Below are positions 5,351 to 60,300 of a DNA stretch of 64,000 bases, piece after piece. Both the position numbers and the translations under genes were made by a program. Origin of the DNA: Minisyncoccota bacterium. Lineage in GTDB: Bacteria; Patescibacteriota; Minisyncoccia; Phycocordibacterales; UBA6065. A model generated the notes under the pieces. It saw only the letters and a list, made by a program, of their open reading frames with translations. It made no database searches and was not told the DNA's origin. Each line of letters opens with the position of its first letter. Within the stretch, counting starts at the first letter, position 1. The stretch covers positions 1,830 through 65,829 of the forward strand of contig DAORIX010000002.1 of NCBI GenBank assembly GCA_035438745.1. The letters run 5' to 3'.

Positions 5351-5363
5351 GAAAAGAGATTAA

Positions 5364-5831
5364 TTACTGAATAGAAAGTATTTTATAAGCAATTGCCCCT
5401 TTTGGAGTTGTAACAGATACTGAATCGCCCTTCTTCTTGCCAATGAGCGCCAAACCGAGTGGTGACTGATTAGAGATCTTGCCTTCATGTGCGTTCACCT
5501 CTTCTGACCCAACAATTTTAAATGAAGCCTCTCCTCCTCCAGATTTCTGAACTTTGATAGTAGAACCCATGCCGACAGAATCCGCATGACGGTCTCCGAC
5601 AATTTCAGCTGTTTTGAGTGTGTCCTCGATAATAGCGATACGGTTTTCAATAGTAGCCTGCATTTCACGTGCCTCCTGATACTCTGCGTTCTCGGATAGA
5701 TCTCCGAGTGAACGTGCGTATTCGAGATTTTGAGCAACCTCTCGACGCTTAACCGTCTTTAAATCCTCAAGTTCTTTTGAAAGCTCTGCAAACTTCTCCT
5801 TGGTAAGGTACTTTATATTTTCCATAGACAT
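5364..5831 (-). CDS. greA: Transcription elongation factor GreA
   Basis: 155 aa with an N-terminal coiled-coil bearing acidic residues and a C-terminal FKBP-like domain. Typical GreA length. Confidence 0.85.
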   Translation of the reverse strand: MSMENIKYLTKEKFAELSKELEDLKTVKRREVAQNLEYARSLGDLSENAEYQEAREMQATIENRIAIIEDTLKTAEIVGDRHADSVGMGSTIKVQKSGGGEASFKIVGSEEVNAHEGKISNQSPLGLALIGKKKGDSVSVTTPKGAIAYKILSIQ

Positions 5832-5905
5832 TGATTAAGTAATGGAAAGATAATAACGTATTTTTTAGTAAAAGGCAAACAACCCTCTCCTCTGCTCAAA
5901 AACGA

Positions 5906-38271: not shown

Positions 38272-38635
38272 AGTAAAAGTTTTAATAAACCTTACCTGTG
38301 TATTGCATACAAAAAACCTGCCACAGGTAGAGGCCTAAGCCTCTCATACCGGTTTCCCGATATGGCGAGTTAAGCGACCCTATGACAGGCTCTTTATGCT
38401 TAACTCGACTTCTGACCATGCCACTGATGACTCAGTAGTTTAGGTACTTTTTCATATTCAATTGTCTCCTTCACTCTACCATCACTTCCCTCAAATACAA
38501 AAGAGTTTAAAAAAATGGGAGGGGGGGCAAAAATGCTAGCAAATGCAATCATGAAAATGATAGCATTTCGAAAACTTATTAGCCCACCTAAACTTACTTA
38601 AAAATATATGTATAATTGACCCATACAGAGCTGAA

Positions 38636-40156: not shown

Positions 40157-41761
40157 ATGAGAAATAAAGCTATTACTTATTGTAGAGTATCCTCTAAAGA
40201 ACAAGAAGAAACTGGTTATTCTCTTGATGCTCAAGAAAAACTATTAAAAGAGTATGCTGAAAAAAAAGAATGTGAGGTCACTAAGGTGTTTCGTATCTCT
40301 GAATCCGCAAGTGGAAAACAAATCAGGAAAACATTTAACGAAATGCTCGCTTACATGGAGAAAAACCACGTACCTGTTTTACTCTGTGAAAAAATAGATC
40401 GCCTTACCAGAAACCTAAAGGATGCCGCGACTGTCAGTGACTGGTTACAAGCTGATCCTATACGAGAAATTCACTTTGTTAAAGAAAACTTTGTAGTAAA
40501 CAAAAATACTCGTGCTCATGAAAATCTTGTTTGGGACATGAAGGTTGCCATTGCGCGCTTCTATACAAACAATCTATCAGAAGAGGTTAAAAAGGGGCAA
40601 GCAGAGAAAATTTCACAAGGCGGCCTCCCTACTAAACCACCTATTGGATACAAGACTATTGGAGAAAAAGGCCACAAGGTCCATGTTTTAGATCCGGACA
40701 AAGCACCTTTTGTAAAAAGAATGTTTGATCTTTACGCTACTGGGAACTACTCAATGACCAGCCTCAGAGAAGAGTTACATACGGAGGGTTTTCGAATGAG
40801 ATCCGGAAAAAAGGTTATGAAAAGTAAATTTGAGCAAATGCTTAAAGACCCTTTCTATTACGGTGCTTTGAGATGGAATGATGTCATATATCACAATGGA
40901 ACACATGAACCGATTATCTCAAAAGAAACGTTTGATAAAGTTCAAGATATAAGAACAAAGAAAAAAGCACCTAGTTACTCAAGACATTCTTTTCAGTTTA
41001 GAAAGATGTTCAAGTGTGGAGAATGTGGTGGAAGCGTCACCGCTGAAATACAAAAAAACATCGTCTATTACCATTGTAATCATTATCGACCTTGCTCTCA
41101 AAAGAAATACACTCCTGAGGAAAAGCTTGAAGAGAAATTATTTGGTGTATTCAAGTTTTTTGAAACCATTACAGTAGAAGAAGCAGAAGAAATAAAGGCC
41201 AAAATCAAGCTAAACCACTGCCAGGAAATCGAATATAAGGAAAACACCATTAAAGCCCTGAACGAACGGTATAACACGCTACAAAGACGGTTAGACAACC
41301 TTTATAACGACAAGCTCGATGAGAAAATCACACGCGAGTTCTGGGAAAAGAAGCAAGCTGAAATAACAAATGAGCAAAAAGCTATTCAGGACCAGCTTTC
41401 TCGCCTCAAAGGCGAAGAAGCGAAGTATTTTGAAATCTGGCTCAACATCCTAGATCTCGCTCGTCGAGCCGGCGAGATCTACAAGAAACGATCACCAGAG
41501 GAGAGGCGTTTACTTTTGAGTCATATTTTTTCGAACCTGGTCCTAAAAGACGAAACAGTGACTCCTACTCTCAAAGCTCCAGTCCAGAAACTTGCTGAAC
41601 GTGTCCAACAACGACTAGACGCCGAAAAGACTTTCGAACCAGATAAAAACGGCTCTATAAAAACACAAAAAGGTGCTCTCGCACCCCTTGTGTCCAACTA
41701 TGCTCCGGGAGAAGGGATCGAACCTTCGACCAATCGCTTACGCTTACCCTCTCATTACTGA
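40157..41761 (+). CDS. Large serine recombinase (resolvase catalytic domain, recombinase domain, zinc ribbon and coiled coil)
   Basis: 534 aa with N-terminal ITYCRVSSKEQEETGYSLDAQ (catalytic Ser). It has a recombinase domain, a zinc ribbon (CGECGGS ... YYHCNHYRPC) and a C-terminal coiled coil. The last ~20 codons overlap the tRNA-Asn 3' exon on the opposite strand. Confidence 0.85.
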   Translation: MRNKAITYCRVSSKEQEETGYSLDAQEKLLKEYAEKKECEVTKVFRISESASGKQIRKTFNEMLAYMEKNHVPVLLCEKIDRLTRNLKDAATVSDWLQADPIREIHFVKENFVVNKNTRAHENLVWDMKVAIARFYTNNLSEEVKKGQAEKISQGGLPTKPPIGYKTIGEKGHKVHVLDPDKAPFVKRMFDLYATGNYSMTSLREELHTEGFRMRSGKKVMKSKFEQMLKDPFYYGALRWNDVIYHNGTHEPIISKETFDKVQDIRTKKKAPSYSRHSFQFRKMFKCGECGGSVTAEIQKNIVYYHCNHYRPCSQKKYTPEEKLEEKLFGVFKFFETITVEEAEEIKAKIKLNHCQEIEYKENTIKALNERYNTLQRRLDNLYNDKLDEKITREFWEKKQAEITNEQKAIQDQLSRLKGEEAKYFEIWLNILDLARRAGEIYKKRSPEERRLLLSHIFSNLVLKDETVTPTLKAPVQKLAERVQQRLDAEKTFEPDKNGSIKTQKGALAPLVSNYAPGEGIEPSTNRLRLPSHY

Positions 41762-42319
41762 AAGGAGCGGACTATATCATTCTCGTGATCCACCTCTGGA
41801 CCTTACGAGACGAGGGGCTTCCCATCTGCCCCGTGGCAGACAGTACTCCTAAAAAGGATAGTCTCTACACCCTCCCTTCAACCTCACTCAAGATTTACTT
41901 TGAGTTTTCGTCAAAGGGCTCGGCTCGGGATTGCCCACACATGTGGGGTTCCCCGAATTCACCTCGTTTTCGACCAAGCTTTCACTTGGAAGCTGCATGA
42001 TGCCCGCACCAACCTCTCTGTGGCAATTCGCGCACAAAAGAATACATTTATCGAGCTCTGCTTTTACCTTATCCCATGAACGCGTATAACCCTTATCACC
42101 AATCCCGAATCCTTTTTCTTCTTTTTTGATATGGTGAAGTTCTAACGCGCCTTGATATTTATTGTATCCACAGATCTGACATTTGCCTCCTTTGTACTCA
42201 ATAGCCAAAGATTTGATTTTTTTGCGTCTTTTAGAAACCGCACGAATCAAAGCTTCGCGTCGATCGGCATATTTTCTTCTGTCTGGCATTACTTTAATAA
42301 TACCACCAGAAAATCGTTT
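41741..42319 (-). mobile_element. Group I intron (~579 nt) carrying an HNH homing-endonuclease ORF
   Basis: The 3' part of the intron contains the paired P7-type elements AGAGACUA ... GAUAUAGUCCGCUCC. These are close to the Tetrahymena CAGACUA ... AUAUAGUCGGACC core. The intron ends in G before the 3' exon and follows an exon U. Confidence 0.7.
41888..42289 (-). CDS. HNH homing endonuclease encoded within the group I intron
   Basis: 133 aa with HNH motifs CQICGYNKYQGALELHHI ... LLCANCHR. Confidence 0.8.
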   Translation of the reverse strand: MPDRRKYADRREALIRAVSKRRKKIKSLAIEYKGGKCQICGYNKYQGALELHHIKKEEKGFGIGDKGYTRSWDKVKAELDKCILLCANCHREVGAGIMQLPSESLVENEVNSGNPTCVGNPEPSPLTKTQSKS

Positions 42320-44250: not shown

Positions 44251-45009
44251 ATGTGTAAAACATACGACGGAGACCGAACCCAGCTACCTATACACAAAAA
44301 AGGACTGAATGCAGTACTCAACATCTACTCATCACGAGTAACCGAGGGAGTCCCCCTCCCCGAAAAAGTTGTTACTGAATGCTACGGAGCAATGACCGAC
44401 AAACTGCACGTACGTATTATGCATTTTGTCGCACTCATTGATCTCGTGTATCGATACTACAACGATGAGAAAGGACTATGGGGAATGGGACCAGAGCTCT
44501 TGTTCTCTGCCCATCTCCCTAACACCCTCACTCGTTTTCGCTCGAAAGAAATGACAGCACTGCACGACTCATGGTTGTCATTCCAACTCGCAGAAAGGAA
44601 TAGAAAGAAACTCGACAGCATACTCCGAACACACTGTGACTTAGCGCTTGTGTCCCTCTGCTGTTGCGGAAGCAAGGCCGTAGCCTTTGGCGATGCAAAA
44701 CACGCCTTAGAACTATCGGGAGATTTCAACTATGTCCGAACAACTGCCGACATGTATGGACAAGTCGACGAAACAACGGAGCTTGATGACATTCCGAACG
44801 AAGCAATGCCCGATCTACTACGTTCAGCATTCAAAAGAATCATCATCAACGCACACAAGATTGCTCACGCACAGAATGATTGTTTCTGTTGTTCAATCTC
44901 CCCTACGCTCAAAACCGCAGGTGTGATCGACTCAGAAATCAAGCGCGCACAACAAGTTCAGTTGTTCCTCCCAGAACTGTCAAAAACAAAAGAGACGGTA
45001 CTCGTATAA
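44251..45009 (+). CDS. Cys-rich hypothetical protein (GC-richer than its neighbours)
   Basis: 252 aa with CCCGSK and CFCCS clusters. No recognizable family. A strong terminator follows. Confidence 0.5.
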   Translation: MCKTYDGDRTQLPIHKKGLNAVLNIYSSRVTEGVPLPEKVVTECYGAMTDKLHVRIMHFVALIDLVYRYYNDEKGLWGMGPELLFSAHLPNTLTRFRSKEMTALHDSWLSFQLAERNRKKLDSILRTHCDLALVSLCCCGSKAVAFGDAKHALELSGDFNYVRTTADMYGQVDETTELDDIPNEAMPDLLRSAFKRIIINAHKIAHAQNDCFCCSISPTLKTAGVIDSEIKRAQQVQLFLPELSKTKETVLV

Positions 45010-45017
45010 GGAACACA

Positions 45018-45051
45018 GCTGTGAATGGACAAACACATTCACAGCTTTTTT
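45018..45051 (+). terminator. Rho-independent terminator
   Basis: 10-bp stem gctgtgaatg / cattcacagc with loop gacaaaca, followed by TTTTTT. Confidence 0.6.
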
Positions 45052-45070
45052 ATAAAAAAGAAAAAATACT

Positions 45071-45901
45071 ATGATAATAGGATTCTTAGGAAAAGGAGGA
45101 AGCGGAAAATCAACACTTTCCACTCATTTCACAAAATACTTAGCACAAAAAAAGTATATGGTACTTGCTATTGATGGTGACCACAACATGGATATGAGTT
45201 ATCTTTTGGGAAACAAAAACTCATCTACCCCATATCTAGGAAACGGCCTCGGTGACTTGCTCGAGTACAAAAACAAAAAATATGCACATTATAGTGATAT
45301 GCTTTTTGACGATGAAAGGCCTCAATTTTCGATACATCCAAAAGATGCTTTTACAAAGAAATATTCTGTAAAAATTTCACGAGGCATTGACCTTATGATA
45401 GGTGGACCCCACACAGACAATGTAAAATTTGGTCAGAGTTGTAGCCATGTACTAACTACACCTCTCAAGTCATACCTACCTTTGGTAAAATTTTCAAAAA
45501 AACAAGCAATCGTGCTCGATGAAAAAGCTGGCTCAGACGGTGCAGGAACAGGTATTGCGACGGGTTTAACCTTAGCGATTATTTGTGTTGAGCCCACACC
45601 ACAGAGCATAAAAGCAGCAAAACAAATTGCGGAACTGCTCACCTTTTTTGGCACACCATACGAATACATAGTAAATAAATACAAGAAAAATTCTCCTCTT
45701 AACGGCCTAGATAAAAAACCTCTCGCCTTGATCCCATTCTCAGAGCAAGCGACTTCAAAAAAGTTTACCGGTGCAAAAAAAGCGTTTAGTACTATCGAAA
45801 AAAGAGCACTTAATGAAGAGCAAAAAGATACCGAGGCTCGCTTCAAACGAAGTAAACAAAAATTTGAGAGAAACAAAAGCTTCAAAAATACAAATTCGTA
45901 A
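45071..45901 (+). CDS. MinD/ParA/CooC-family P-loop ATPase with a basic C-terminal tail
   Basis: 276 aa with a deviant Walker A (FLGKGGSGKST) and an LAIDGDHNMD motif that is MinD/CooC-like. Confidence 0.7.
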   Translation: MIIGFLGKGGSGKSTLSTHFTKYLAQKKYMVLAIDGDHNMDMSYLLGNKNSSTPYLGNGLGDLLEYKNKKYAHYSDMLFDDERPQFSIHPKDAFTKKYSVKISRGIDLMIGGPHTDNVKFGQSCSHVLTTPLKSYLPLVKFSKKQAIVLDEKAGSDGAGTGIATGLTLAIICVEPTPQSIKAAKQIAELLTFFGTPYEYIVNKYKKNSPLNGLDKKPLALIPFSEQATSKKFTGAKKAFSTIEKRALNEEQKDTEARFKRSKQKFERNKSFKNTNS

Positions 45902-45922: not shown

Positions 45923-45951
45923 TTGCTTGACCTGTCGAGACTCTATATACT
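45923..45951 (+). promoter_or_regulatory. Sigma70-like promoter TTGCTT-17-TATACT upstream of the DUF4430 operon
   Basis: -35 at 45923..45928 and -10 at 45946..45951, with a 17-nt spacer. Confidence 0.4.
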
Positions 45952-45984
45952 CCTAGGTGTTAGCTATCACGCACGATGCGTGAC

Positions 45985-46205
45985 ATTCAAAGAAAAAAGA
46001 TTTGAATGTGGAAATGAGGTAAGAAACAAATAGATAGTTTCAATTCCTCTACTGTGCCGCAACGGTAATGCCTGACATCTCATGATGTACAGGACAAGTC
46101 CGGTCGTTAGCTACATTTTACAATTCCGAGCAGAAGCGCATACACCATGGTGAGACACCTAAACTCTCCATACCTATCCTTCTCTCGCGAGAAGCTTTTT
46201 TATTA
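45985..46205 (+). promoter_or_regulatory. Long structured leader with a terminator-type attenuator; candidate riboswitch, possibly cobalamin-class
   Basis: ~260-nt untranslated leader after the promoter. It has a 9-bp hairpin acattcaaa / tttgaatgt. It has the tract AGGTAAGAAA ... TTCC ... CTGTGCCGCAACGGTAATGCC, which resembles the cobalamin-riboswitch core (GGGAAG ... GGTGAAA-TCC ... CCCGCAACTGTAA). The GGTGAAA motif is poorly matched. A hairpin cttctc-tcgc-gagaag plus CTTTTTT at 46179..46201 sits immediately before the ATG at 46213. Confidence 0.3.
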
Positions 46206-46212
46206 TCTTATT

Positions 46213-46734
46213 ATGCGTACACATATACAAAAAATAGTAGTAGGCGTTCTGGGTTTAATTATCCTGACTTTTTTACTCCTTGGATCACAAAAAACAAGCC
46301 CTACCGTAGAGAATGAGGTATCGCCCACAACCACGCCCGATATTACAACAAACATCGAGATAAAAAATACCCCTCGAGAATACCCTACTGAAAAAATAAC
46401 TCCAAAAGTTGCAGAAAACCCTCTCAAGGAACCGATAACAGTAACGCTCACCATTCCTCAAAAAACATACGAGACGAGCGTAGAAAACAAATCATCGGTG
46501 TATGACCTCATGGAACACCTCCGAAATACACAAGGGCTACTTTTTGAATCTGAATACTACACAGGCATGGGTTTTTTCATTACATCACTATCAGGTACCA
46601 AGCAAAACCCGAAAAATAGTGACTATTGGACTCTTTATATAAACAACAAGGAATCACAAACCGGAGTGTCCTCTGCCCTTTTGAAAAACGGAGACTCAGT
46701 AGAGTGGAAATTAGAAAACAGAAATAACCTATAA
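46213..46734 (+). CDS. Membrane-anchored DUF4430-domain protein (transcobalamin beta-domain-like)
   Basis: C-terminal DUF4430 pattern (SDYWTLYINNKESQTGVSSALLKNGDSVEWKLE). The start is placed at 46213, after the leader hairpin. The ORF track offers an in-frame upstream ATG at 46147. Confidence 0.6.
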   Translation: MRTHIQKIVVGVLGLIILTFLLLGSQKTSPTVENEVSPTTTPDITTNIEIKNTPREYPTEKITPKVAENPLKEPITVTLTIPQKTYETSVENKSSVYDLMEHLRNTQGLLFESEYYTGMGFFITSLSGTKQNPKNSDYWTLYINNKESQTGVSSALLKNGDSVEWKLENRNNL

Positions 46735-46739
46735 ACATC

Positions 46740-48740
46740 ATGAAAAAATTACTTTTTGTAACATTACTTTTTGTTGCGCCACTCATTACACTCGCTGATG
46801 AAGCAACATCAACTGCAACCACGACGCCAGAAACCACTGTAGAAGAAACTATTGTAGTAAACCTCAACATCAGACATACCAACACGGTTATTTTTTCAGA
46901 ACCAATCACCGTACCAAAGAATAAAACAATAGGAACACTGGATAATACCGGCGCGAGCCATACCGTACTCAGCGATAGTGTTCTCGGAGCACTCGTGCGT
47001 GCAGACAGTGATAGTGAGTTGTTCCGTATTTCAGACCTCGCCCACTACAGCTCTTTTGATTCGTTTATCATAAACTGTATCGAAGCAAATACTTCAAACT
47101 TCTGCTACAACTGGCAATATGTAGTAAACAATACCTATCCCTATGTCGGTATAGACGATTACATTCTTTCTCAGGGCGACACGATATATCTCTACTTTGG
47201 ATCGCCTCGAAAATTTTCCTTTACCGCTACGACCACAGACACACAAACACCTTTTGATGTTCTTGTAGAAACATATGATTACGAAAACGACGCATGGAAT
47301 CCTCTAGAAAATGCTCGCGTAGGTGCAACACAGCCAAATCCAAGCGACCCCTACTCACCCCTCGTACCATTTTCATCAATGAGCAATACGCTAGGTATTG
47401 CGTCTCTACTCGTATCAACTCCTGGAACATTTGATATTGGACTAGAGCTTGATTATTACTACCCTACGCAACCTATTGTCGTTATCGAGGCTCTTTCTAC
47501 CACAACAAGTACAAGTACTCCTCCTGAAAATACTCAATCAAATAATTCATCTTCACGCAGAGAAGAATCACAGACAACAGAACCTCAGAAAAACTTTGAT
47601 TTGGAAAAAGCCCTCTCGTTCATACTCTCATACCAAAATGAACAAGGCGTATTCGCCAACGACCTCTACACCGACTGGGCACTTCTCGCGCTCATAGCGG
47701 GAGACGCATCTGGAAATGCCATCAGTAAAACCAAAAAATACATCACCGAAAATCCGACAACAGGATCATATCTCCTTGATTATGAGAGACGCGCTCTTTC
47801 CCTCATGAGCGCAGGTATAAACCCCTACACAGGTAGCTCTCAAAATTACATAGAGTACATACTAAAAACGTTTGACGGCACACAGTTTGGTAACAGCGAC
47901 CTCTTTAATGACGATATTTTTGCACTCATACCCCTCCTCAAAGCGGGATACGGGGCACAGGATTCAGAAATACAAAAAGCGGTTACGTTTATCATCTCCA
48001 AACAAGATAGTAACGGATCATGGCTCGGTGTAGACCTCACCAGTGCAAGTATTCAGGCCCTCATGCCCGTACGATCCCTCAGTGGAGTCGAAGAGGCGCT
48101 TCAGAAAGCAAAGAGCTATCTCAAAAACGCGCAAGGATCTGACGGCGGGTTCGGAAATAGTTTTGCTACAAGCTGGGCAATTCAAGCAATACATGCTCTC
48201 GGAGAAAATCCACAGACATGGACAAAAAATAACAAAAGCCCTCTCGACTATCTTGCGAACACACAAGACACTGACGGAGGTCTCGACAAAAGCCTCGATA
48301 CCAATTCTCGTCTATGGGCAACAAGCTATGCCATCACAGCCCAGAGCGGTAAAACATGGAATGCACTCATGGCAACATTCTCAAAAAACACCTCTCGAGA
48401 CGCCGGCTCTTCTCCGGTCGTTTCGGCGGGAGCAACTGGTACAACGACAGGGTTTGTACTTGGCACAAGTACAAACGCAGTTATTCAAACAGATCGAGAT
48501 ATGACACGAAAAATTGTTCTCGATTACATCTATGAACTCACAGGACTCACCGGAGACACGCTCATTCTACTCTATGAACCACAGACAGTCATTCCCGCGC
48601 CTAAAAAACAGACTGTATCTACTACAACAGAACAAGAAATACCAAACGATACGCTGCCGGCACGAACCTTTGAAGTGCCAACACCGCCACGGAACATAAA
48701 GGGTACGCTCAAAGACTTCCTCGATTCGATATTCAAATAA
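46740..48740 (+). CDS. Secreted DUF4430 plus prenyltransferase/squalene-cyclase-like alpha/alpha-toroid protein (bacterial transcobalamin-like architecture)
   Basis: 666 aa with a signal peptide. The N-terminal DUF4430-like pattern reads NWQYVVNNTYPYVGIDDYILSQGDTIYLYF. A Ser/Thr linker follows. The C-terminal half has repeated toroid motifs (QNEQGVFANDLYTDWALLAL, SDGGFGNSFATSWAIQAIHALGE, QDTDGGLDKS...LWATSYAI). Confidence 0.65.
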   Translation: MKKLLFVTLLFVAPLITLADEATSTATTTPETTVEETIVVNLNIRHTNTVIFSEPITVPKNKTIGTLDNTGASHTVLSDSVLGALVRADSDSELFRISDLAHYSSFDSFIINCIEANTSNFCYNWQYVVNNTYPYVGIDDYILSQGDTIYLYFGSPRKFSFTATTTDTQTPFDVLVETYDYENDAWNPLENARVGATQPNPSDPYSPLVPFSSMSNTLGIASLLVSTPGTFDIGLELDYYYPTQPIVVIEALSTTTSTSTPPENTQSNNSSSRREESQTTEPQKNFDLEKALSFILSYQNEQGVFANDLYTDWALLALIAGDASGNAISKTKKYITENPTTGSYLLDYERRALSLMSAGINPYTGSSQNYIEYILKTFDGTQFGNSDLFNDDIFALIPLLKAGYGAQDSEIQKAVTFIISKQDSNGSWLGVDLTSASIQALMPVRSLSGVEEALQKAKSYLKNAQGSDGGFGNSFATSWAIQAIHALGENPQTWTKNNKSPLDYLANTQDTDGGLDKSLDTNSRLWATSYAITAQSGKTWNALMATFSKNTSRDAGSSPVVSAGATGTTTGFVLGTSTNAVIQTDRDMTRKIVLDYIYELTGLTGDTLILLYEPQTVIPAPKKQTVSTTTEQEIPNDTLPARTFEVPTPPRNIKGTLKDFLDSIFK

Positions 48741-48764
48741 AAATAAGTTACAATAAACCCCACC

Positions 48765-49307
48765 ATGAAAACACGTACCAAAATAATTCTCGCACTACTC
48801 CTCATCGCTTTTGGCTTTGCAGGACGAATGCTTCCTCATGCATGGAACTTCACACCACTCATCGCTATTTCACTCTTTGCAGGAGCTTATCTCGGACGAC
48901 GTTATGTGATAGCAATACCTATCATCACCATGCTTCTCTCAGATATATTCCTCGGCTTTTATAATGTCGGAGTTATGCTCACGGTATACACAAGCATAAT
49001 TCTAGCGGGCTACATAGGAACATATCTCTCCTCACAAAAAAATCTCGAACGTCTCACTCTCGCAACGCTCTCCTCATCAACACTTTTCTTCCTTACAACT
49101 AACACAGCAGTGTGGGCTTTTGGAACTATGTACGAAAAAAGTATTACCGGCCTCCTCGCGTCATATACCGCAGGAATACCCTTTTTTAGAAATATGATTG
49201 TAGGAGATATGTGGTTTACCCTTGTTCTCTTTGGATCGTATGAATTGGCAGTACTTTTGTACAAAAGAATAAACACAAAGGAAACACCCGAAACTATTAA
49301 CTTGTAA
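48765..49307 (+). CDS. Small polytopic membrane protein, ECF-transporter S-component-like (candidate substrate-capture subunit)
   Basis: 180 aa with 5-6 predicted TM helices. Its size and topology match ECF S components. It is the last gene of the DUF4430 operon. Confidence 0.4.
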   Translation: MKTRTKIILALLLIAFGFAGRMLPHAWNFTPLIAISLFAGAYLGRRYVIAIPIITMLLSDIFLGFYNVGVMLTVYTSIILAGYIGTYLSSQKNLERLTLATLSSSTLFFLTTNTAVWAFGTMYEKSITGLLASYTAGIPFFRNMIVGDMWFTLVLFGSYELAVLLYKRINTKETPETINL

Positions 49308-49377: not shown

Positions 49378-51567
49378 CTACCTACCCAATCTATAGAGCT
49401 GTTTTGCTTCGTCGACAGAGAGCACTCTGTTATATACGCGAACTTCATCAATAGCTCCATCAAATGTTCGTGCAGTATCAGCACGATTACCTATAACCAA
49501 ATCGAGAGAAGCATCGGATCCGGCAGAATCAGTAGCGCCAGCAACAACAGTATGGTACGAAATTTCGACACCGTTCCTATAAATACGTGATCCTGAGTTG
49601 TTATAGCCGGTAGATCCATCCCATGTAACCATAAAATGTTGCCACTCGCCTATAGTAAAACTATTACTTGCACCGCAACGTCCCGCTCTCGCGGTAGCAG
49701 TAGAACCTACTTTTATAAAATATATAGCATTTGTAAGACTTGCTTCTCCAGCGAGACAACCAGCACCTGTAACTAAAGTAATCTGCCATTGGCCAGCAAC
49801 ACCAATATTTCCATTCTTTGCTACCACACGAGATTGATTACCCTCACCTGCAGAATTTGGTTTAATCCAAAAACTAACACTCATAGGAATGAGGTCGTCG
49901 AGAGAACTCGCTGAACCAGCATTCACAATATCGTCCACCGCATCAAAACGTAGTGCCTGACCTGATTTTCCTGGAACAGGAGATGTGGTGGTACTCATAC
50001 TTGTAATCACCGCGTTACTGTTACGACCAGAACGATCGTATGCGATATTATTCGCCCAACTGATGTCAGAACCATTAAATGACCAGTATCCCACGAGACC
50101 GTCAGTAAATCTATTTTGTTGTGATGAGTTAATAGCGGTCTGATTTTGATTGTAGAGTGCCTGTACTTCACTATCAGAAAGTGCCCTACTGTACACGCGC
50201 ACATCGTCTATTTTTCCAGGGAAAAATCGTCCTGGAGTACCACTGATATACGCTCCTCCAATAGCAGCATTGGCTGAAGAACTCTGTGCACCCACAGCTT
50301 TTACAGCACTTGCCACCAATACACCATCGACATATAACACCCAAGATGTCCCATTATAAAGTCCGACAACATGATGCCATGTGTTTATCGGAAAATTAAT
50401 ATTCCAAGAAGTACCGTAGTCGATCGAGGGACCGAAAGTCAGAACCTCCAACTTTGCGGGACTGCCACTATAGCGTAAAACGTATGCTTCTCGAGTACCA
50501 TCAAATCCCTTCTCCATAATTATACCGCAGTAGTTAGCGCAACCATTATTGTTCGATGGAAAAGAACTAAAATTGACCCACGCAGACAATGTTATTTGTC
50601 CCGTAATATTAAGCGCAGACGGATTACCGAGAGCGATAAAGTCATCTGTACCGTCAAAATCCAAAGCCTTGCCTTTCTTTCCTCCTACCCAATCAGTGTG
50701 TGGAGCCATGTTGGTGAGAGTTCCATGAAGGCTATTACCAGAAAAATCATGAGCGATAGTAGAAGTACCTTCGTCAAAAGACCAGTGTCCGACAAGTCCT
50801 CTGTTTGAAACAACCTTACGAGTCACCTGACCGTTTGAGTAGAGTGCCTGAATTTCATTGAGAGATAGAGCTCTGTTATAAATACGCACGTCGTCTATTT
50901 GAGCACTGACATACCCGTCATCACCAGTACCCACTCCAGCTCCGATAGCAACCGCTCCTCCGTTGTTCATACTTCCCATACTCGCACCCGACGTTGCAAC
51001 AAGAACTCCATCATAATAAAGGAGTGCATTAGAGCCGTTTGAAACACCGACAATGTGGACCCATTTGCCTGTTTGAGGAAAAGGTCCGATAGCCCACTGG
51101 TTTTCAGCACCTCCCTGCCTACCAAAACGCATACCAGTACCAACATGAGACCAAAAGGCATATGAGCCAGAAGCTTTCGACAAAAGATCGCCGTCATCCC
51201 ATACAGAATCTTTGACCCACATAGAAATAGTCACTGTGCTCGAAATGTTGAGCCGGCCTTGAGAATCAGTCACAGAAACATACTCATTTACACCATCAAA
51301 ATCGAGTGCCTTTCCCCTTTTACCGTTTATCCAGTCGGTTGCCTCCATGTTGTTGAGGTTTCCGTTTTGACCAAAACCAGAAAAATCATGAGCAATAGTC
51401 CCAGCACTTTCATCAAAAGACCAGTAACCCACAAGACCGAGGTTTGATGGCGGTTTAGAGAAAGTTCCAGCATGAAGAGGTAAAACCATCAACAAGTAAC
51501 TTGCCACAACAAAACCAAATACAAAGGTAAATCGAATTTTTTTGCTATGTAGTAGTGAGGAAAACAT
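49378..51567 (-). CDS. Secreted protein with three LamG/ConA-like lectin-fold repeats
   Basis: 729 aa with a signal peptide. It has three repeats of GLVGYWSFDE..GT.A.D.SG...G...NM....DW..GK.GKAL.FDG.DD.V........W.H.V......LY.DGV.......IDDVR.YNRALS..E...LY. Confidence 0.7.
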   Translation of the reverse strand: MFSSLLHSKKIRFTFVFGFVVASYLLMVLPLHAGTFSKPPSNLGLVGYWSFDESAGTIAHDFSGFGQNGNLNNMEATDWINGKRGKALDFDGVNEYVSVTDSQGRLNISSTVTISMWVKDSVWDDGDLLSKASGSYAFWSHVGTGMRFGRQGGAENQWAIGPFPQTGKWVHIVGVSNGSNALLYYDGVLVATSGASMGSMNNGGAVAIGAGVGTGDDGYVSAQIDDVRIYNRALSLNEIQALYSNGQVTRKVVSNRGLVGHWSFDEGTSTIAHDFSGNSLHGTLTNMAPHTDWVGGKKGKALDFDGTDDFIALGNPSALNITGQITLSAWVNFSSFPSNNNGCANYCGIIMEKGFDGTREAYVLRYSGSPAKLEVLTFGPSIDYGTSWNINFPINTWHHVVGLYNGTSWVLYVDGVLVASAVKAVGAQSSSANAAIGGAYISGTPGRFFPGKIDDVRVYSRALSDSEVQALYNQNQTAINSSQQNRFTDGLVGYWSFNGSDISWANNIAYDRSGRNSNAVITSMSTTTSPVPGKSGQALRFDAVDDIVNAGSASSLDDLIPMSVSFWIKPNSAGEGNQSRVVAKNGNIGVAGQWQITLVTGAGCLAGEASLTNAIYFIKVGSTATARAGRCGASNSFTIGEWQHFMVTWDGSTGYNNSGSRIYRNGVEISYHTVVAGATDSAGSDASLDLVIGNRADTARTFDGAIDEVRVYNRVLSVDEAKQLYRLGR

Positions 51568-51613: not shown

Positions 51614-53779
51614 TTATTTTCTACCCATTCCGTATAACTTTTTTACTTCATCGGCAGACAGTGCTCTATCATAGATACGAAACTCATCCATATTTCCATC
51701 AAAACGACCAGTTCCACTTTGATGACCACCGATTAAAGGACGTATTGGAGTCAAACTAAGACTACCAGAATCAACCACGGAGCTTTGGAAAACACCGTTC
51801 CTATAAATAGAAAAAGTACTATTATAATTGCGAACAAACGCAATATGGGTCCACTCATTAAGAACAATATCCCCAATCGTACAAACAGCCCCTAAGCCAG
51901 TACTATTTTCATAACGCTTTTGCAAACAATACTTATTCCCTATTGGTTTAAGCGATATAAGTGAGTTACTAGTAGTCATGCGATCAAAAAAATAAGTACC
52001 TGAACCATCGGTCGAGAGACCGTTCGTATAAGCACGAGGCTTTAACCACACACTGTATGTAAAACTACCATTAGAATTTATACTCGGATTAGCGTTCACC
52101 TCAACAGAATCATCAACACCGTCAAAACTCAGAGCTTGGCCTGATGCGCCCGCTACTGGTGATGATGAGTTACTCATATTAACAATGGAAGCATTATTTC
52201 CTCTCCCTGAGCGATCATACGCTACGTTTGTAGGCCAATGTATATCAGGAGCATTAAATGACCAGTAGCCGACAAGACCGCTCGTCAGTTGATCTTTTTG
52301 TGGAGCATTAATTAATGTTTTATTTTGTTGATATAGTGCTCTTACTTCAGACGAAGAAAGTGTTCTATTATAAATACGTACATCATCAATATTTCCATCA
52401 AAAGATCTAGTCCCAGCGAATGCATCACCTCCTATCCTGAAAGAACCGTTAAGTGTTTGATTGTTGTGCGTGATGACGTTTTCAGCACTACGACATGAAT
52501 CACCAGTACATAAATACGCTGTTGCTTTTGTTGGTTCAATCGCCACTGCAACCAAAGACCATGTATCCAATGGTATTGAAAGCCCACTCGACCATCCATA
52601 TGTTGCAACATTATTATCGTTCCAAGTATATGTTAAGTCATTTGTAGCGTCTCGATAGTGTATACCAACTGACTGTGGATCATTTCTTAAATACAATATA
52701 CCTGTATAGGCTCCTGTTCTTACCCCTTTAACCCACGCAACAAAGGTTACTGTATTTGAAGTAATCCCAGAAACAGGAAATGAAACATAATCATTCGTAC
52801 CATCAAAGTCTAAAGCTTTTCCCTTCTTGCCTGCTACCCAGTCGGTGTTTGCGTCCATGTTGGTCATATTTCCATTGCGACCATTCCCTGAAAAATCATG
52901 AGCGATGGTGGATGTGCCCTCGTCAAAAGTGAAATGTGCAAGAATGCCCCTGTCGGATACTCCAGTTCGAATCGTCTGTCCCACAGTAGCAAGCGCCTTG
53001 ATTTCATCTCGAGTCAACGCCCTGTTGTAAATACGCACATCATCAATGGAGCCCGCAGTGAATTCAGAAGTACCTTGATATGAACCGAAATACGCGCCCG
53101 TTGATCCTGAGAAGACCGGAAGGTTTACATTGGGTGTATCTTTTTGGTTTGTAACAGACCCATCAACGTACACTTTGAAACCATTAGTTGTATTCTTCTC
53201 CCACGTCATAGCAATATGCCGCCACTTACCATCATGTACGTTACCGCCACCAATATTCACACCTGTGACTCCTCCGTCTGTAGAAACGAGAGCACGTGGT
53301 GCAAATGCCCCACTACTTGTCCAACCTAAAACAATATAAGCAGTACCATCTTGTAAGCGCACCATAGACTCAATATCAGAACCCTTAAACCAACCGGCTA
53401 TTGTTATTGCAGTATTACCAGAAACACGACTAGAAAGATTGGCGCTTGGTAACGCAACATAATCATCGACTCCATCAAAATCAAGAGCCTTACCTCTCTT
53501 GCCCGCTACCCAGTCAGTAGATGCATCCATGTTGGTCATAACACCGTTGAATCCATTCCCTGAAAAATCACGAACAATCGTAGAGACACCCTCATCAAAA
53601 GACCAGTGACCAATGAGCCCGAAGTTTGAAGGAGGTTTTGAAAAGGTGGCAGCATGAACAGGCAAAACCATTAACGAGTAACCTGTCACGACAAAACCAA
53701 ACAAAAGGGCAATTCGGATATTTTTAATGTTAAACAAAAAAGACATTATGTTTTTATTATTTCCACTCCATAGTAGCAA
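51614..53779 (-). CDS. Secreted protein with three LamG/ConA-like repeats, a paralog of 49378..51567
   Basis: 721 aa with the same repeat architecture and the same N-terminal sequence pattern (VLPVHAATFSKPPSNFGLIGHWSFDEG). Confidence 0.7.
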   Translation of the reverse strand: MLLWSGNNKNIMSFLFNIKNIRIALLFGFVVTGYSLMVLPVHAATFSKPPSNFGLIGHWSFDEGVSTIVRDFSGNGFNGVMTNMDASTDWVAGKRGKALDFDGVDDYVALPSANLSSRVSGNTAITIAGWFKGSDIESMVRLQDGTAYIVLGWTSSGAFAPRALVSTDGGVTGVNIGGGNVHDGKWRHIAMTWEKNTTNGFKVYVDGSVTNQKDTPNVNLPVFSGSTGAYFGSYQGTSEFTAGSIDDVRIYNRALTRDEIKALATVGQTIRTGVSDRGILAHFTFDEGTSTIAHDFSGNGRNGNMTNMDANTDWVAGKKGKALDFDGTNDYVSFPVSGITSNTVTFVAWVKGVRTGAYTGILYLRNDPQSVGIHYRDATNDLTYTWNDNNVATYGWSSGLSIPLDTWSLVAVAIEPTKATAYLCTGDSCRSAENVITHNNQTLNGSFRIGGDAFAGTRSFDGNIDDVRIYNRTLSSSEVRALYQQNKTLINAPQKDQLTSGLVGYWSFNAPDIHWPTNVAYDRSGRGNNASIVNMSNSSSPVAGASGQALSFDGVDDSVEVNANPSINSNGSFTYSVWLKPRAYTNGLSTDGSGTYFFDRMTTSNSLISLKPIGNKYCLQKRYENSTGLGAVCTIGDIVLNEWTHIAFVRNYNSTFSIYRNGVFQSSVVDSGSLSLTPIRPLIGGHQSGTGRFDGNMDEFRIYDRALSADEVKKLYGMGRK

Positions 53780-54336: not shown

Positions 54337-57300
54337 TTAAGGGGTTTCAGGTGCTGGTTCTGGAGCAGGTTCAGGATCTGGGGTTGGAGCTGGCTCTGGA
54401 TCAGGTGTTGACTCCGGTGTCGGTTCTGGATCAGGAGTAGGTGTTGGTTCAGGGGTCGGAGTAGGTTCAGGATCTGGGGTTGGAGCTGGCTCTGGATCAG
54501 GTGTTGACTCCGGTGTCGGTTCTGGATCAGGAGTAGGTGTTGGTTCAGGGGTCGGAGTAGGTTCAGGATCTGGGGTTGGAATTATTGGACTTGTTGTTGT
54601 CGCTCCACACTCTCCTGCCTCAGACTGCATCACACCGTTTGCGATAAACATACAAACAGATTCGCCTGTAATACGATCGGTCACCGTGATACCCGCAGTA
54701 CTCCTGTCATCAGGAACAATCTTGAGAGATTTCGCGGTAACAGCATTCGCCACAAGATTGTTTACCGTTATTGTTTCTGCGAATATGTCGGTAAAGCGCG
54801 CAATCGTATTTTCAAACACTACACCAATCTGAGTAAACCACTCTGAAACTATTGAAATAGTTGTCGATGCTGTTGTTGAAGCAGTAGTTGTTCCTGAGAG
54901 AGCCTCGAATGTCGATGTTGCAGTTGTTGAAGACATTATAGAAGCGAGGAGATTTGCTGTGGCGTCGAGGCGAGCTTCGAGTGTTGTTACGCGATCAGAC
55001 AAAGCATCGATTACACGAACCTGTTCCTGAACACCAGCGAGGATGTAGGTAGAAAGTTTATAAATATCTACACCCTTACCTCCAGGAGCGAGAACTTCGA
55101 GTGGAGCCTCTTCTGCAATGAGACCGAGGCGAAGAGGTTCTGAACCTGACTCAGTGTTGTAGTGATACGTTGCAACTCCAATATTTCGAATGGTATCCAA
55201 GACAGAAGCTTTCTCTTCTTGTGACAAGTACGTAATATCTTTCTTTGCATCTCGTGTTGAAACATTTACAAACGATGTCGCCGCAACATCACCATCTACA
55301 TAGAGTTTGTATGCTGCCGAAGTAGTACCGAATCCTGCATGACCATTCGCGTCAATCACAAAGACCTCGTCACCTTCATTGTCCTTGAGAATAAGTTTTT
55401 GAAGTACAGAAGGATTGAGATCGCCTTCAGTAAACGCAAAGCTGTTTGCGAACACCAAGTCGCCCGTATAGGTATTTCCTGTTGTACGGAGATTTCCCTT
55501 GACCCATAGGTTTGAAGAGTACGTTGATGTTGAGTTTGCGCCAGTACCCAAGACATCGAGATAACCAAAGATTGTTGATGTAGCGCTTGTTGATGTTGCG
55601 GTGAACTTTTCTGCAACAACAGCACCTGCAACTGACAACTTTGCATATGGAGATGATGTTCCAATACCTACAGCGGTATTTTTTATACCTCCCGCACCGT
55701 TTGATTCAGCGTACACAGTAAGAAGTGGATCGCCGTTGATAGCTGCGGTGTAGCTCTGCTTTGTACCATCTGCTGACGCTGACGTTACTGGCATATCTGT
55801 CCATGTCACAATACCTGCATCAGAATCAAATGTTGTGATACCCAACTGAAGGTTATCGATGTTCGTTACTCCTGATGAGAAGTCATAACGAAGAGATCCG
55901 TTACCCACATTGAATCCTCCAGCAAATGTTGAAGTAGCTGTTGTTGATGTTGCAGTGAACTTTTCTGCAACTACCTCACCTACAACTGACAACTTTGCGT
56001 ATGGAGATGTCGTACCGATACCAACGTTTCCGTTACCCGAAACGATGAAGAGTGTTGATGTCGCAAGGTTGGTTGATGATGTTGCAATGACAAAGAGAGG
56101 AGTAGCTACCGCTCCATTATGTGAACCAACAGAAAGCTTTGCGTATGGTGATGTGGTACCTACGCCAACTGTTCCAGCGACAAGTGTTCCAACAGAACTT
56201 CCTTTTGTACCGGCACCAACAAATAATTTGCCAGCCTCTCCTCGAGAAATACCTATATCTTTTGTTGACCACCACTGATCATTACCCCAACCAACAATTG
56301 CCTGATATCCCAAATTGACTCCTCGAGGATAGTTAGCGGACTCAGTACTACTATCAACGAGCATCGCTGTCTGATCATCTAGCGTACCCAAGTTAGAAGA
56401 ACCAATAAGACCATCCTCACGAATAAAGGCAACTTGTACTCCTGATGAGTTATTGATACGGAGGACAGGATTAGCAGTACCTCCTCCCACGTTACCTGCT
56501 GCTCCCTGAATAGTCACACGAGTATTTGTTGTACCTCTAAAGAAAGCAGTAGCCGCAGTAGCAGAACTCAACACTGAGAACGTATTAAACGGAGTTGTAG
56601 TTCCTACTCCCACATTTCCAAATCGATCAACAATAAACACTGTGCTTGTGGCAGTACCTGCTGTTGAAGATGCGATAACAAAGAAAGGAGAGACAGGATT
56701 TGTTGTAGTAGAAACAGAGAGTATTCCCCATGGAGACGTGGTACCGAGACCCATTCTGTATGCAGAGTTGGTGTAGATAGAGAGAGCATCTAGAGTAGAT
56801 GTTGCCCACTTTGAATTTGCACTACCTCCGCCTCCCGCACCGCCGTCATCATCAGAACAAACAACTTGTCCCAAAGCATTTGTAGTGAGGGCTCCACCGT
56901 TGGTGTTTCCTGTACAGTTAAGTCCTGTTATAACAAGGGCAGTGGTTGATGCAGTACCTGTGGCAGTGAGGTTACCTCCGATGTATGCATTGCCGGCTAC
57001 AGAAAGACGGGTGAATGGCGTAGATGTACCAATACCAATTCTGCCACCTTGCACAATCCTCATTGCTTCAGATTGCGCAGGAGAAAATGCAATAAAGTTT
57101 GCTGTTCCGCCTGTGTAATTAGTCGTAACGTTAAGATAATTGTCTCCGCTATTATTAAAGAGAAGCTGAGCGTTTTGACTCGTTGCACCACTGCCGAGCT
57201 GCAAGAGGCCGTTTGTAGAATAGATACCTGTGTCCACACCAAGTGATCCAGAAACACTAAGATTTCCTGTTGTTGTCGCACCACCAGAAATAGTGAGACC

Positions 57301-60300
57301 TCCGTTTTGAGCACCGTTTCCAATAGTTGATGAAGCTGAAACGAGTATGCCGAGTGTTGTTGTTGGAGCGAGATAACCGTTAGTGATCTCCCATGCTTTA
57401 CCGAATGTAAGTCCGCTACCACCTACTGATCCTGTGATACATGATCCGTTAATAGCGAAACATCCTCCAGTAAGATTGAATCCAACGTTTGAGGTTGATG
57501 TAGCAGAGCCTGAGATGTTGAGGCCTGAGAGTGTTGTGGTACCAAAGCCTGTAGCTGATACAGAGAGGAGCGTTGTTGAGGCGCTTGAAGTAACTTCAAA
57601 GGCACGACCCGTTGTTGTTGCCCATACAGAGAGACGAGCATATGGAGTGGTTGTTCCAATTCCTACTGCACTATTTTGTATACCTCCAACACCGTTTGAT
57701 TCTGCGTAAACAGTAAGGAGAGGATTTCCGTTAATTTCTGCAGTGTAGCTATGCTTTGTAGCGAGAGGAGATGCTGCGGTCACTGGCATATCTGTCCATG
57801 TCACGATACCTGAGTCTGTATCAAAGGTAGTGAGGCCGAGTTGGAGATTATCGATGCTTGTGACGTTTGATGAGAAATCATATCTCAAAGATCCATTACC
57901 AACATCGAGTCCTCCAGCAAAGGTTGATGTTGCTGTCGTTGATGTTGCGGTGAAATTACGCGCAACTACTTCACCGACAACTGAAAGTTTTGCGTATGGA
58001 GTTGTAGTACCGATACCAACGCTTCCATTAAAGTATGCATTGCCGGTAGTAGTTGAGTTTCCAGAAACAGTGAGACCTCCCTGTCCTGTACCATTTCCGA
58101 TTGTTGATGAAGCTGAAACGAGAACACCGAGAGTGGTTGTAGGTCGGAGTGAACCAGCAACTATAGACCAGTCACGGAATTGTGAAGCGTAATAATCTTG
58201 TGATGTTGTAGCCCATGATCCAGCAGCTGCTCCACAAGCAGAACCTGTACCTGATACCTGACCAAGAGAGTTCACTTGGAGACACTGAGTAGAGCCGGTT
58301 ATTGAAGTGATAGTGAGATTCGTTGTGGTTGCAGTGCCTGTAGCAAAGAGATTTGCGACAGTGAGATTACCTGAGAAGAGGCCGTTACCCTGTACTGAAA
58401 GTTTCGTTGCTGGGGTTGTTGTACCGATAGCCATATTTCCTGCAAAGTAACCATCTCCGTTGTCGAGGTCCACAAATGCAACGTTCGTGTTGTTTCCCAT
58501 CCACTGGAACTTATTCTCAGGATTATTCCAATACAAACCGTATGTATCGTAATTGGTAGATCCGATAAAGAAAGACATTACATATCGACTCGAGCTTGCA
58601 TCAAATCTCCAACGACCAGTTGAACTAATATCTCCTACAATTTCGAGAGCATCGCGAGGAGCCGGTGCGTTTATACCAACCCTTCCGTTATTAAGTACGG
58701 TGAAGAGTGTGGTTGTTGAGTTTGACGTAGATGACGCTATAGAGAAGAGAGATGTGTTGGTTTCTCCGTTGTATGCATGCACAGAAAGTTTTGAGACAGG
58801 AGTTGAGGTACCAATGCCAACATTTCCAGTTGATGATATTCTCATTCTTTCAGTATTGTTTGTACCGAAGAGAATACTGTTAGCGCTGTTGTTACCGATA
58901 AGCAAGTTTGTAGAAGAAATAAGAGATGAAACCGCAAAAGAGCTTACTCCCCACACTGAACCCGTAGCACCTGCTCCATACATTCTCAAAGTAAGGTTCG
59001 ATGCAGCTCCAAGACTCTGGAGAACAAGGTTCGCAGAACCGCTCGCACCGTTTGATGTCTCCTGAACTTCGATACCTGAATGTGCATTAGCAGTGCTCTT
59101 TATTTTCAAAAGCGCATTAGAAAGTGTTCCGCTGTATGTACCACCAATAGCCATTACACCTGTAGTAGTTGAGTTTCCAGAAACAGTGAGACCTCCCTGT
59201 CCTGTACCATTTCCGATTGTTGAAGAAGCTGAGACGAGGACACCGAGAGTGGTTGTAGGTCGGAGGTATCCGTTGAATATTGAGAAATCACGGAATTGTG
59301 AAGCGTAATAATCTTGTGAGGTTGTAGCCCATGATCCAGCAGCTGCTCCACAGGCAGAACCTGTGCCAGATACCTGACCGAGAGAGTTCACTTGGAGACA
59401 CTGAGTAGAGCCGGTGATTGAGGTGATAGCGAGGTTGGTGGTTGATGCGGTGCCTGTAGCGGTGAGGTTTCCTCCGATGTATGCAGAGCCGGCTACTGAG
59501 AGACGTGCGAATGGAGATGAGGTTGCGATACCGAAGTTACCAGCACTAGAGAACTTGAAGCGTTCCATGTAATTAGCACCTCCATCTAGATTGCCCCATG
59601 CCAATCCCTCATCCTGAGTGGTTGAAGCAAACCAGAAAACAGATGGAGTATCTTGATTTGAAATAAAGAATTGAGGTGACTGAGTTGAGTAGGCTATCAT
59701 ACCAAGCATAGAAGAAACTTCGCCAACAAAGACAGACTCACTATCTACAATTAAATTTGTAGTTCTCAACATATCGCCGAGAACAGTCAAAGATCCCGTC
59801 GTCGTAGCACCACCAGAAATAGTGAGGCCTCCCTGTCCTGTACCATTTCCAATTGTTGAAGAAGCTGAAATGAGCACACCGAGTGTTGTTGTCGGACGAA
59901 GTGAGCCTGCGACTATAGACCAATCACGGAATTGCGAGTTGTAGAAGTTAGCTGAAGTTGTAGCCCATGATGAAGATCCTGCTCCGCAGGCAGAACCTGT
60001 TCCTGATACCTGACCGAGAGAGTTGACTTGGAGACATTGAGTAGAGCCGGTGATTGAGGTGATAGCGAGGTTGGTGGTTGATGCGGTGCCTGTAGCAAAG
60101 AGATTTGCGACAGTGAGATTGCCTGAGAAGAGACCATTACCCTGGACTGAGAGTGTGGTAAATGGCGTTGAGGTGCCAATGCCTATACTGCCCGAATCTG
60201 TAATTCTTAGACGTTCTAATTTTGTGGTGCCACCACTGAGAGTGGTGTCAAAAGTGATGTATGTTCCTTGATTTGTTGTTGACCAACCCTCTGCTGTTTT

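Follow-up and report, generated by a model that had tools for sequence, protein, structure and literature searches.

A predicted cobalamin riboswitch upstream of a candidate B12-scavenging operon in Patescibacteria

The locus and its leader

The stretch of DNA analyzed here, a 64,000-nucleotide (nt) segment of a Minisyncoccota bacterium genome (assembly GCA_035438745.1, contig DAORIX010000002.1, positions 1,830 to 65,829) referred to below as the window, carries three plus-strand genes preceded by a leader that resembles cobalamin (vitamin B12) riboswitches. The original prediction, made from the sequence alone, had described three co-directional genes, and their tight spacing was verified, with gaps of 5 nt between gene 1 and gene 2 and 24 nt between gene 2 and gene 3. 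A 311-nt non-coding stretch lies between the operon and an upstream ParA-like gene that ends at 45901. The features of the locus, including the adenosylcobalamin (AdoCbl)-type aptamer and its expression platform, are as follows.

45923..45951 (+): possible promoter (TTGCTT, 17-nt spacer, TATACT), read from the sequence
45985..46142 (+): predicted cobalamin (AdoCbl-type) riboswitch aptamer, from RF01482, nhmmer, covariance model R1 and covariation
46125..46190 (+): predicted antiterminator, in which the 3' segment of L13/P13 (46125-46136) pairs with 46175-46190
46179..46201 (+): predicted intrinsic terminator, with a 6-bp stem CUUCUC/GAGAAG (46179-46194) and 4-nt loop followed by CUUUUUU, from a terminator scan
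46213-46734 (+): gene 1, 173 amino acids (aa), a DUF4430 domain behind a hydrophobic N-terminal membrane anchor and a linker rich in Thr and Pro
46740-48740 (+): gene 2, a 666-aa secreted protein with DUF4430, beta-sandwich and alpha/alpha toroid domains
48765-49307 (+): gene 3, a 180-aa DUF6580 membrane protein

The longest open reading frame (ORF) of gene 1 begins at 46147. We preferred the start at 46213 because 46147 lies inside the leader, within the expression platform, and because 46213 gives a normal signal-anchor N-terminus. The promoter, originally described as good, is better regarded as a possible one: the match is weak (8 of 12 consensus positions) and was not called by a consensus promoter scan. 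A TATACT-like -10 element was also present in a close relative, L001 (related loci are designated by such numbers).

An Rfam scan of the leader, one of the checks suggested with the original prediction, gave AdoCbl (RF01482, clan CL00101) as the sole notable match in E-value mode, at 45985-46142 with 24.4 bits and an E value of 0.022. The family was the expected one, but the score was below the gathering cut-off of 50 bits, and because of this shortfall the riboswitch is missed by standard annotation; at the gathering cut-off, the whole window yielded no riboswitch and only a LOOT RNA and a group I intron. The alignment to RF01482 spans the conserved core, and the tract CCGCAACGGTAA at 46057-46068, in line with the core-like tract first noticed in the leader, falls within it. 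The original prediction was to be considered refuted if no riboswitch model scored on the leader; taken literally, this rule would misfire here because no standard Rfam model reaches its cut-off.

Leaders of several homologous operons exceeded the Rfam cobalamin-riboswitch cut-offs at the position equivalent to the window leader, namely, those of L014 (57.6 bits), L012 (52.5 bits), L003 (36.5 bits, RF00174), L011 (47.5 bits, RF01689) and L015 (40.4 bits, RF01689). An nhmmer profile built only from three Rfam-passing leaders of homologous operons found the window leader with an E value of 4e-9 and some 40 further leaders besides, each on the strand of its operon. A covariance model of the lineage, R1, was built from 31 related leaders with the window and its near relative L001 left out, and it scored the window leader at 82.7 bits with an E value of 3e-18. 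Across the 64 kb the leader was the only significant match to R1, the next having an E value of about 1, and the model recovered 46 elements in 44 of 84 sources, all on the plus (operon) strand. We regard the leader as a riboswitch rather than a chance resemblance because the R1 and nhmmer matches were both obtained with the window absent from the models.

For the secondary structure, 24 base pairs patterned on RF01482 were written on the alignment of the 31 leaders. RNAalifold alone gave only 10 pairs on the MAFFT alignment, and we placed the outer stem, a small hairpin and P13 manually before testing them. The 24 proposed pairs were paired in 85.9% of cells among the 31 relatives, compared with 38-52% when the partners were slid by 1-3 columns, and the covariation score of 0.436 (0.10-0.22 for slid partners) was reached by none of 500 shuffles. 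Changes on both sides were found for 18 of the 24 pairs. The leader, platform included, was nearly unchanged in L001, whose gene 2 protein is 89% identical to that of the window. The nhmmer and R1 matches, the covariation and the expression platform (below) bear out the proposal of a cobalamin riboswitch and, at the level of sequence, indicate that the leader (about 45966-46202) is a divergent but genuine member of this class with predicted ligand binding. The same comparisons place it in a subgroup of AdoCbl-type riboswitches, found in Patescibacteria, to which general models give too low a score. The parts assigned within the aptamer are listed below.

46001-46008 with about 46114-46123 (+): outer stem
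46010-46013 (+): GGAA
46016-46019 with 46046-46049 (+): P5
46023-46041 (+): L5 insertion, a 20-nt hairpin of 5 bp (GAAAC...GUUUC)
46052-46068 (+): core, CUGUGCCGCAACGGUAA
46063-46065 with 46100-46102 (+): P6
46071-46074 with 46090-46093 (+): P6 extension
46096-46103 (+): B12-box-like, AAGUCCGG
46124-46126 with 46133-46135 (+): P13, with loop CGAGCA

The conserved core GCCGCAACGGUAA...AAGUCCGG was present in the window leader, which also has a longer joining strand ahead of the outer stem. P6 is CGG/CCG in place of the consensus CUG/CAG, and the 3-bp P13 is UUC/GAA compared with the consensus UCC/GGA; both changes are compensatory, and the loop of P13 is conserved. Insertions at the same L5 site were found in L056 and L019. 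L5 normally contacts L13 in cobalamin riboswitches, and by analogy the insertion may alter or decorate this contact.

A terminator-type hairpin had been proposed just before the start codon, and the terminator scan located one at 46179-46194, the hairpin and its T-run lying 11 nt ahead of the ATG at 46213. The search for an exclusive antiterminator, also suggested at the outset, was likewise productive. The minimum-free-energy fold of 46120-46206 (-17.6 kcal/mol, z of -2.67) was the antiterminator, in which 46125-46136 pairs with 46175-46190 and takes up the 5' arm of the terminator, and when the P13 segment was left out of the fold the terminator hairpin formed. The predicted folds of L001 showed the same alternation. 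Among 25 related leaders, a hairpin and U-tract lay within 110 nt of P13 in 22, and in most of the 25 the conserved CGAGCAGGAA found its best duplex partner beginning at, or a few nt from, the start of the terminator (partner and terminator offsets of 39/39, 32/32 and 26/27 nt in the window, L002 and L010, respectively). On these folding predictions, the terminator and antiterminator are mutually exclusive, in the standard OFF design.

Related loci and encoded proteins

Many homologues of gene 2 and gene 3 were found in Patescibacteria. The sample comprised 80 DUF6580 loci from species-representative genomes and three loci from metagenome or genome assemblies, and the locus search used the closer 18-sequence subset of a more diverse 54-sequence DUF6580 alignment. 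A same-strand cobalamin riboswitch was present in 44 of the 80 species-level loci, while 21 were cut before the leader and 15 had none detectable; the proportion among loci with a readable leader was thus 44 of 59, the 44 coming from Patescibacteria, Ignavibacteriota and Bacteroidota. With the lineage model, 41 of the 80 loci had a riboswitch on the same strand; of the 40 of these loci scanned with Rfam, just 7 had a hit above the cut-off.

The commonest gene order, which recurs across Patescibacteria, was riboswitch, small DUF4430 gene, toroid protein gene and DUF6580 gene. In most related loci a small DUF4430 gene comes after the riboswitch; the minimal operon consists of riboswitch, DUF4430 and DUF6580, and some loci have the toroid gene in first place. 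A PduO-type cobalamin adenosyltransferase gene was found directly after DUF6580 in L038 (E value of 7e-57) and L072 (E value of 5e-61). Two Ignavibacteriota loci (L063 and L064) exhibited an RF00174 riboswitch (88-94 bits), a TonB-dependent receptor and then DUF6580, with a DUF5074 beta-propeller protein between the receptor and DUF6580 in L063. In the Bacteroidota locus L058, riboswitches flank DUF6580, and the second precedes a TonB-dependent receptor. The RF00174 riboswitches in these loci are as follows.

L058, 3157-3295 and 3916-4055: RF00174 riboswitches
L063, 94-321: RF00174 riboswitch
L064, 1008-1241: RF00174 riboswitch

Judged by gene order, DUF6580 stands in three phyla where an inner-membrane B12 transporter would, and the Bacteroidota and Ignavibacteriota arrangements suggest that it takes over this step from BtuCDF or BtuM there.

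Other loci showed variations on this arrangement. L062 has an ORF of similar size at the position of the adenosyltransferase gene. L072 carries a second cobalamin riboswitch (4467-4622; 94.9 bits, lineage model) directly after its DUF4430-DUF6580-adenosyltransferase operon, followed by a 431-aa ORF (4623-5918) with no significant Pfam match (one sub-threshold) and no NCBIfam match; from its position this ORF is a candidate for a further B12-regulated gene. Ten Patescibacteria loci (L018, L021, L024, L027, L030, L031, L037, L040, L055 and L059) have DUF4430 then DUF6580 and no riboswitch by the lineage model or Rfam, and these may use another variant, or none. One operon subtype has a conserved ORF of ~175 aa between the toroid and DUF4430 genes (L012 2314-2856, L014 2427-2942 and L052 2365-2901), the L012 copy of which had no Pfam or NCBIfam match.

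The original prediction named two DUF4430 proteins, and Pfam agreed: PF14478 (DUF4430; SLBB, transcobalamin beta-domain-like; cut-off of 23.8 bits) matched gene 1 with 52.4 bits (E value of 7e-14) and gene 2 with 30.4 bits. With phmmer, the gene 1 domain also aligned weakly with the haptocorrin beta domain (4kki, E value of 0.19). Gene 2 additionally matched SQHop_cyclase_C, with Prenyltrans sub-threshold, and an NCBIfam scan of the three genes added nothing specific. The gene 2 protein comprises a signal peptide, DUF4430 (aa about 37-155), a beta-sandwich (about 157-250), a toroid (about 288-545) and a disordered tail, and its AlphaFold2 model (mean predicted local distance difference test [pLDDT] score of 80.4) contained beta domains at 37-250 and an alpha/alpha toroid at 288-545. 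The toroid was about equally like terpene cyclases and intrinsic factor; as modeled, it has the transcobalamin alpha-domain fold and is not specifically transcobalamin-like. Both folds of the transcobalamin pair invoked by the original prediction are thus present, but in the opposite order, with DUF4430 N-terminal and the toroid C-terminal, and with a toroid no farther from terpene cyclases than from transcobalamin. By analogy, and from the riboswitch control and adenosyltransferase neighbors of such operons, genes 1 and 2 are proposed to encode corrinoid-binding proteins.

Gene 3 matched Pfam DUF6580 (PF20221; cut-off of 27 bits) with 155.4 bits and an E value of 2e-45. Its AlphaFold2 model (pLDDT of 94) was small and all-helical, and the best Foldseek matches in the PDB were all S components of energy-coupling factor (ECF) transporters, namely, FolT, BtuM, RibU and ThiT, with template modeling (TM) scores of 0.61-0.64. 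The description of gene 3 as a six-transmembrane protein of ECF S-component size therefore stands as to fold, while the number of predicted helices is seven. A single-sequence phmmer search of the PDB with gene 3 gave no match. The DUF6580 family profile matched one PDB sequence, a 182-residue chain named "Membrane protein" (6fnp_A), with an E value of 1.6e-5 over profile positions 5-121. Entry 6FNP is the structure of ECF-CbrT, through which Lactobacillus delbrueckii imports vitamin B12 (Santos et al. 2018, PMC5997447), and the chain is presumably CbrT, judging from its length, its hydrophobicity and its lack of an Ecf name. Weak Pfam matches within the family were to ECF-ribofla_trS (9 of 54 members) and ECF_trnsprt (3 of 54), and no conserved cysteine column was present in the 18- or 54-sequence alignments. 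From its sequence and modeled fold, we propose that gene 3, and DUF6580 generally, is a corrinoid transporter; the profile match indicates a distant relationship to the B12 transporter subunit CbrT and hence a likely function for an uncharacterized family. A possible ECF module downstream of DUF6580 in L002, L012 and L014 was considered and rejected, as the tandem ATPase of L002 is of the ABC-F ribosomal-protection type and the L012 proteins received no family assignment.

Proposed mechanism, alternatives and implications

In transcobalamin, B12 is sandwiched between the alpha and beta domains. We consider it quite probable, largely in agreement with the original prediction, that the three genes form a B12-scavenging operon controlled through transcription attenuation by an AdoCbl-type riboswitch. 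When cobalamin is low, the L13/P13 segment CGAGCAGAAG would pair with the 5' arm of the terminator, allowing read-through into the three genes. When cobalamin is bound, P13 would be held in the aptamer, presumably via the L5-L13 contact by analogy with known cobalamin riboswitches, so that the terminator at 46179-46201 would form and the operon would be off. The membrane-anchored gene 1 product and the secreted gene 2 product would capture corrinoid at the cell surface in a transcobalamin-style sandwich and hand it to gene 3, which would carry it across the membrane, either unaided, as BtuM does, or together with an ECF module from another part of the genome. Transport by gene 3, the hand-over between the proteins and the energy source are the steps of this scheme that we infer.

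Several results weigh against this interpretation. With respect to the RNA, the window leader misses every Rfam cut-off; its outer stem has three non-standard pairs in the R1 alignment and needs a shifted register to pair; its terminator has a stem of only 6 bp (-6.4 kcal/mol); and 15 of the 59 readable loci had no riboswitch, a permissive re-search of them giving nothing convincing. With respect to capture, gene 2 reached 22.9 bits with Cobalamin_bind (PF01122), compared with a cut-off of 25, and over aa 448-498 only. The sequence profile of its toroid matched squalene-hopene cyclases (E value of 1e-12) and, searched against the PDB, no transcobalamin chain at E values up to 1, while the gene 2 model had a predicted TM score of 0.49, so that its inter-domain geometry is uncertain and offers no reliable interface. 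With respect to transport, ECF ATPase and T components, whose co-occurrence the original prediction had suggested checking, were not found in the 64-kb window or in the flanks of the homologous operons examined; no ABC (ATP-binding cassette) ATPase was found among the window ORFs, nor any phmmer relative of the query proteins.

The best surviving alternative accepts the riboswitch and assigns the operon a cargo other than complete cobalamin, either a different tetrapyrrole such as heme or a corrinoid precursor such as cobinamide, with the surface proteins as broad tetrapyrrole binders. Heme uptake, which also counts against B12 as cargo, has been reported for the Lactobacillus sakei Lsa1836-1840 system, which joins an S component and an ECF module to split proteins resembling the alpha and beta parts of transcobalamin (bioRxiv 10.1101/864751), and Burroughs et al. 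2007 (PMC1796856) allowed for "B12 or its precursors." The control by cobalamin riboswitches in three phyla, however, ties the system to the corrinoid pool rather than to heme, and the adjacent cobalamin adenosyltransferases of L038 and L072 point the same way; on account of this control and these neighbors, corrinoid is favored over heme. Cobinamide salvage would need CobU/CobS-type genes, none of which were seen in the loci. We therefore judge a different cargo to be improbable.

Slightly less probable again is that gene 3 is the sole transport part and that genes 1 and 2 encode co-regulated envelope proteins, for example toroid enzymes of isoprenoid or glycan metabolism, with no B12 binding. 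The weakest alternative, that the leader is a decayed relic or chance resemblance and the operon constitutive, could draw on the sub-threshold Rfam score, the flawed pairing of the outer stem when aligned to the model and the 20-nt L5 insertion, but it is scarcely credible in view of the 82.7 bits (E value of 3e-18) given by the independent lineage model, the near identity of leader and platform in L001, the L5-site insertions shared by L056 and L019, the compensatory changes in P13 and P6 and the intact terminator/antiterminator logic.

The B12-scavenging interpretation leads to a broader proposal, which we advance tentatively and hold to be somewhat more doubtful than secure. The DUF6580 proteins may be widespread ECF-S-derived corrinoid transporters that, like BtuM, have no dedicated ECF module, to which diderms would add BtuB-type receptors, and members of the Candidate Phyla Radiation (CPR; Patescibacteria) a split transcobalamin-like capture system. 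B12 piracy would then be common in ultra-small episymbionts and governed by a riboswitch subgroup of the lineage. CPR bacteria have minimal genomes and obtain cofactors from hosts or neighbors by routes that are largely unknown, and the operon described here would provide a concrete, regulated route of B12 acquisition recurring in dozens of CPR species. The riboswitch linkage in three phyla and the distant CbrT homology give DUF6580 a function hypothesis, and the scores reported above indicate that the Rfam cobalamin models under-call riboswitches in AT-rich CPR genomes. Candidate bacterial counterparts of transcobalamin with rearranged alpha and beta halves also bear on the proposed bacterial origin of the animal B12 carriers. 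These findings would extend known principles to a poorly studied lineage and do not overturn current understanding.

Other features of the window and comparison with known systems

Directly upstream of the riboswitch is an orphan ParA/MinD-like P-loop ATPase gene (45071-45901, +). In L001 the upstream neighbor is instead a CAP-domain gene, and a segment of ~2 kb (two ORFs, 44251-45901) appears, from this comparison, to be inserted in the window. The two Rfam matches elsewhere in the window, both on the minus strand, were a LOOT RNA (RF03000) at 38329-38446, with 87 bits against a cut-off of 46.4, and a group I intron (RF00028) at 41748-42020, with 51.7 bits, just over the cut-off of 50. One minus-strand ORF (41888-42289) overlaps the intron, which adjoins a large serine-recombinase-like ORF (40157-41761, +) and may be part of a mobile or prophage-like segment. 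ARAGORN found no tRNA in the whole window. Two giant minus-strand ORFs (27174-35873 and 54337-63828; 2899 and 3163 aa) and two adjacent minus-strand ORFs of about 725 aa each (49378-51567 and 51614-53779), the first of which has three Laminin_G_3 repeats, presumably encode surface proteins and are convergent with the B12 operon.

The window leader was compared with the AdoCbl riboswitches of RF01482. The two are alike in core sequence, in the helices of the four-way junction, in the P6 extension and P13 hairpin and in the OFF terminator platform, and the leader differs in its 3-bp P13 with the conserved CGAGCA loop, its AT-rich stems and its 20-nt L5 insertion.

Among B12 transporters, BtuM is reportedly a solitary S-component-like protein in which a cysteine ligates cobalt. 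Its genes are said to lie in riboswitch-controlled operons, in diderms by a TonB-dependent receptor, with no ECF module nearby, as for DUF6580. BtuM of Thiobacillus denitrificans (PDB 8OVV) was the second-best structural match to gene 3 (TM score of 0.61); DUF6580 differs in having no detectable sequence similarity to BtuM and no conserved cysteine, the likeness being one of fold only. ECF-CbrT (6FNP; PMC5997447) shares with DUF6580 a small S-component-type membrane protein, as judged from the profile match (E value of 1.6e-5) and the predicted S-component fold. The differences are that DUF6580 is a separate Pfam family, distantly related, with no EcfA, EcfA' or EcfT genes linked to it or in the window.

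Compared with animal transcobalamin, intrinsic factor and haptocorrin, gene 2 has the reversed domain order, an extra beta-sandwich, a Cobalamin_bind score short of the cut-off (22.9 compared with 25 bits) and a toroid sequence nearer to terpene cyclases, and the operon has a second, separate DUF4430 protein. Closer parallels are secreted proteins, described in Firmicutes and archaea, in which an SLBB (DUF4430) domain precedes or follows an alpha/alpha toroid. Their operons often contain another, paralogous SLBB gene and are linked to CbiO/CbiQ, and the proteins were predicted to scavenge B12 in Gram-positive bacteria lacking B12 synthesis (Burroughs et al. 2007, PMC1796856). The window operon resembles these systems (PMC1796856) and that of L. 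sakei in its SLBB-toroid fusion, second SLBB paralogue and S-component-type transporter, and it differs in occurring in Patescibacteria, in having a DUF6580 protein without ECF genes and in being regulated by a cobalamin riboswitch; the cargo assigned to the L. sakei system was heme. The original prediction had called such a module uncharacterized in this lineage, which is fair, although a capture module of this kind had already been predicted for Gram-positive bacteria (PMC1796856). In the literature library searched, we found no paper mentioning DUF6580 or cobalamin riboswitches in Patescibacteria. The idea of transcobalamin-like capture was thus already known from the 2007 prediction for Gram-positive bacteria, and what is new is the proposed B12 role for DUF6580 and the predicted CPR subgroup of cobalamin riboswitches.

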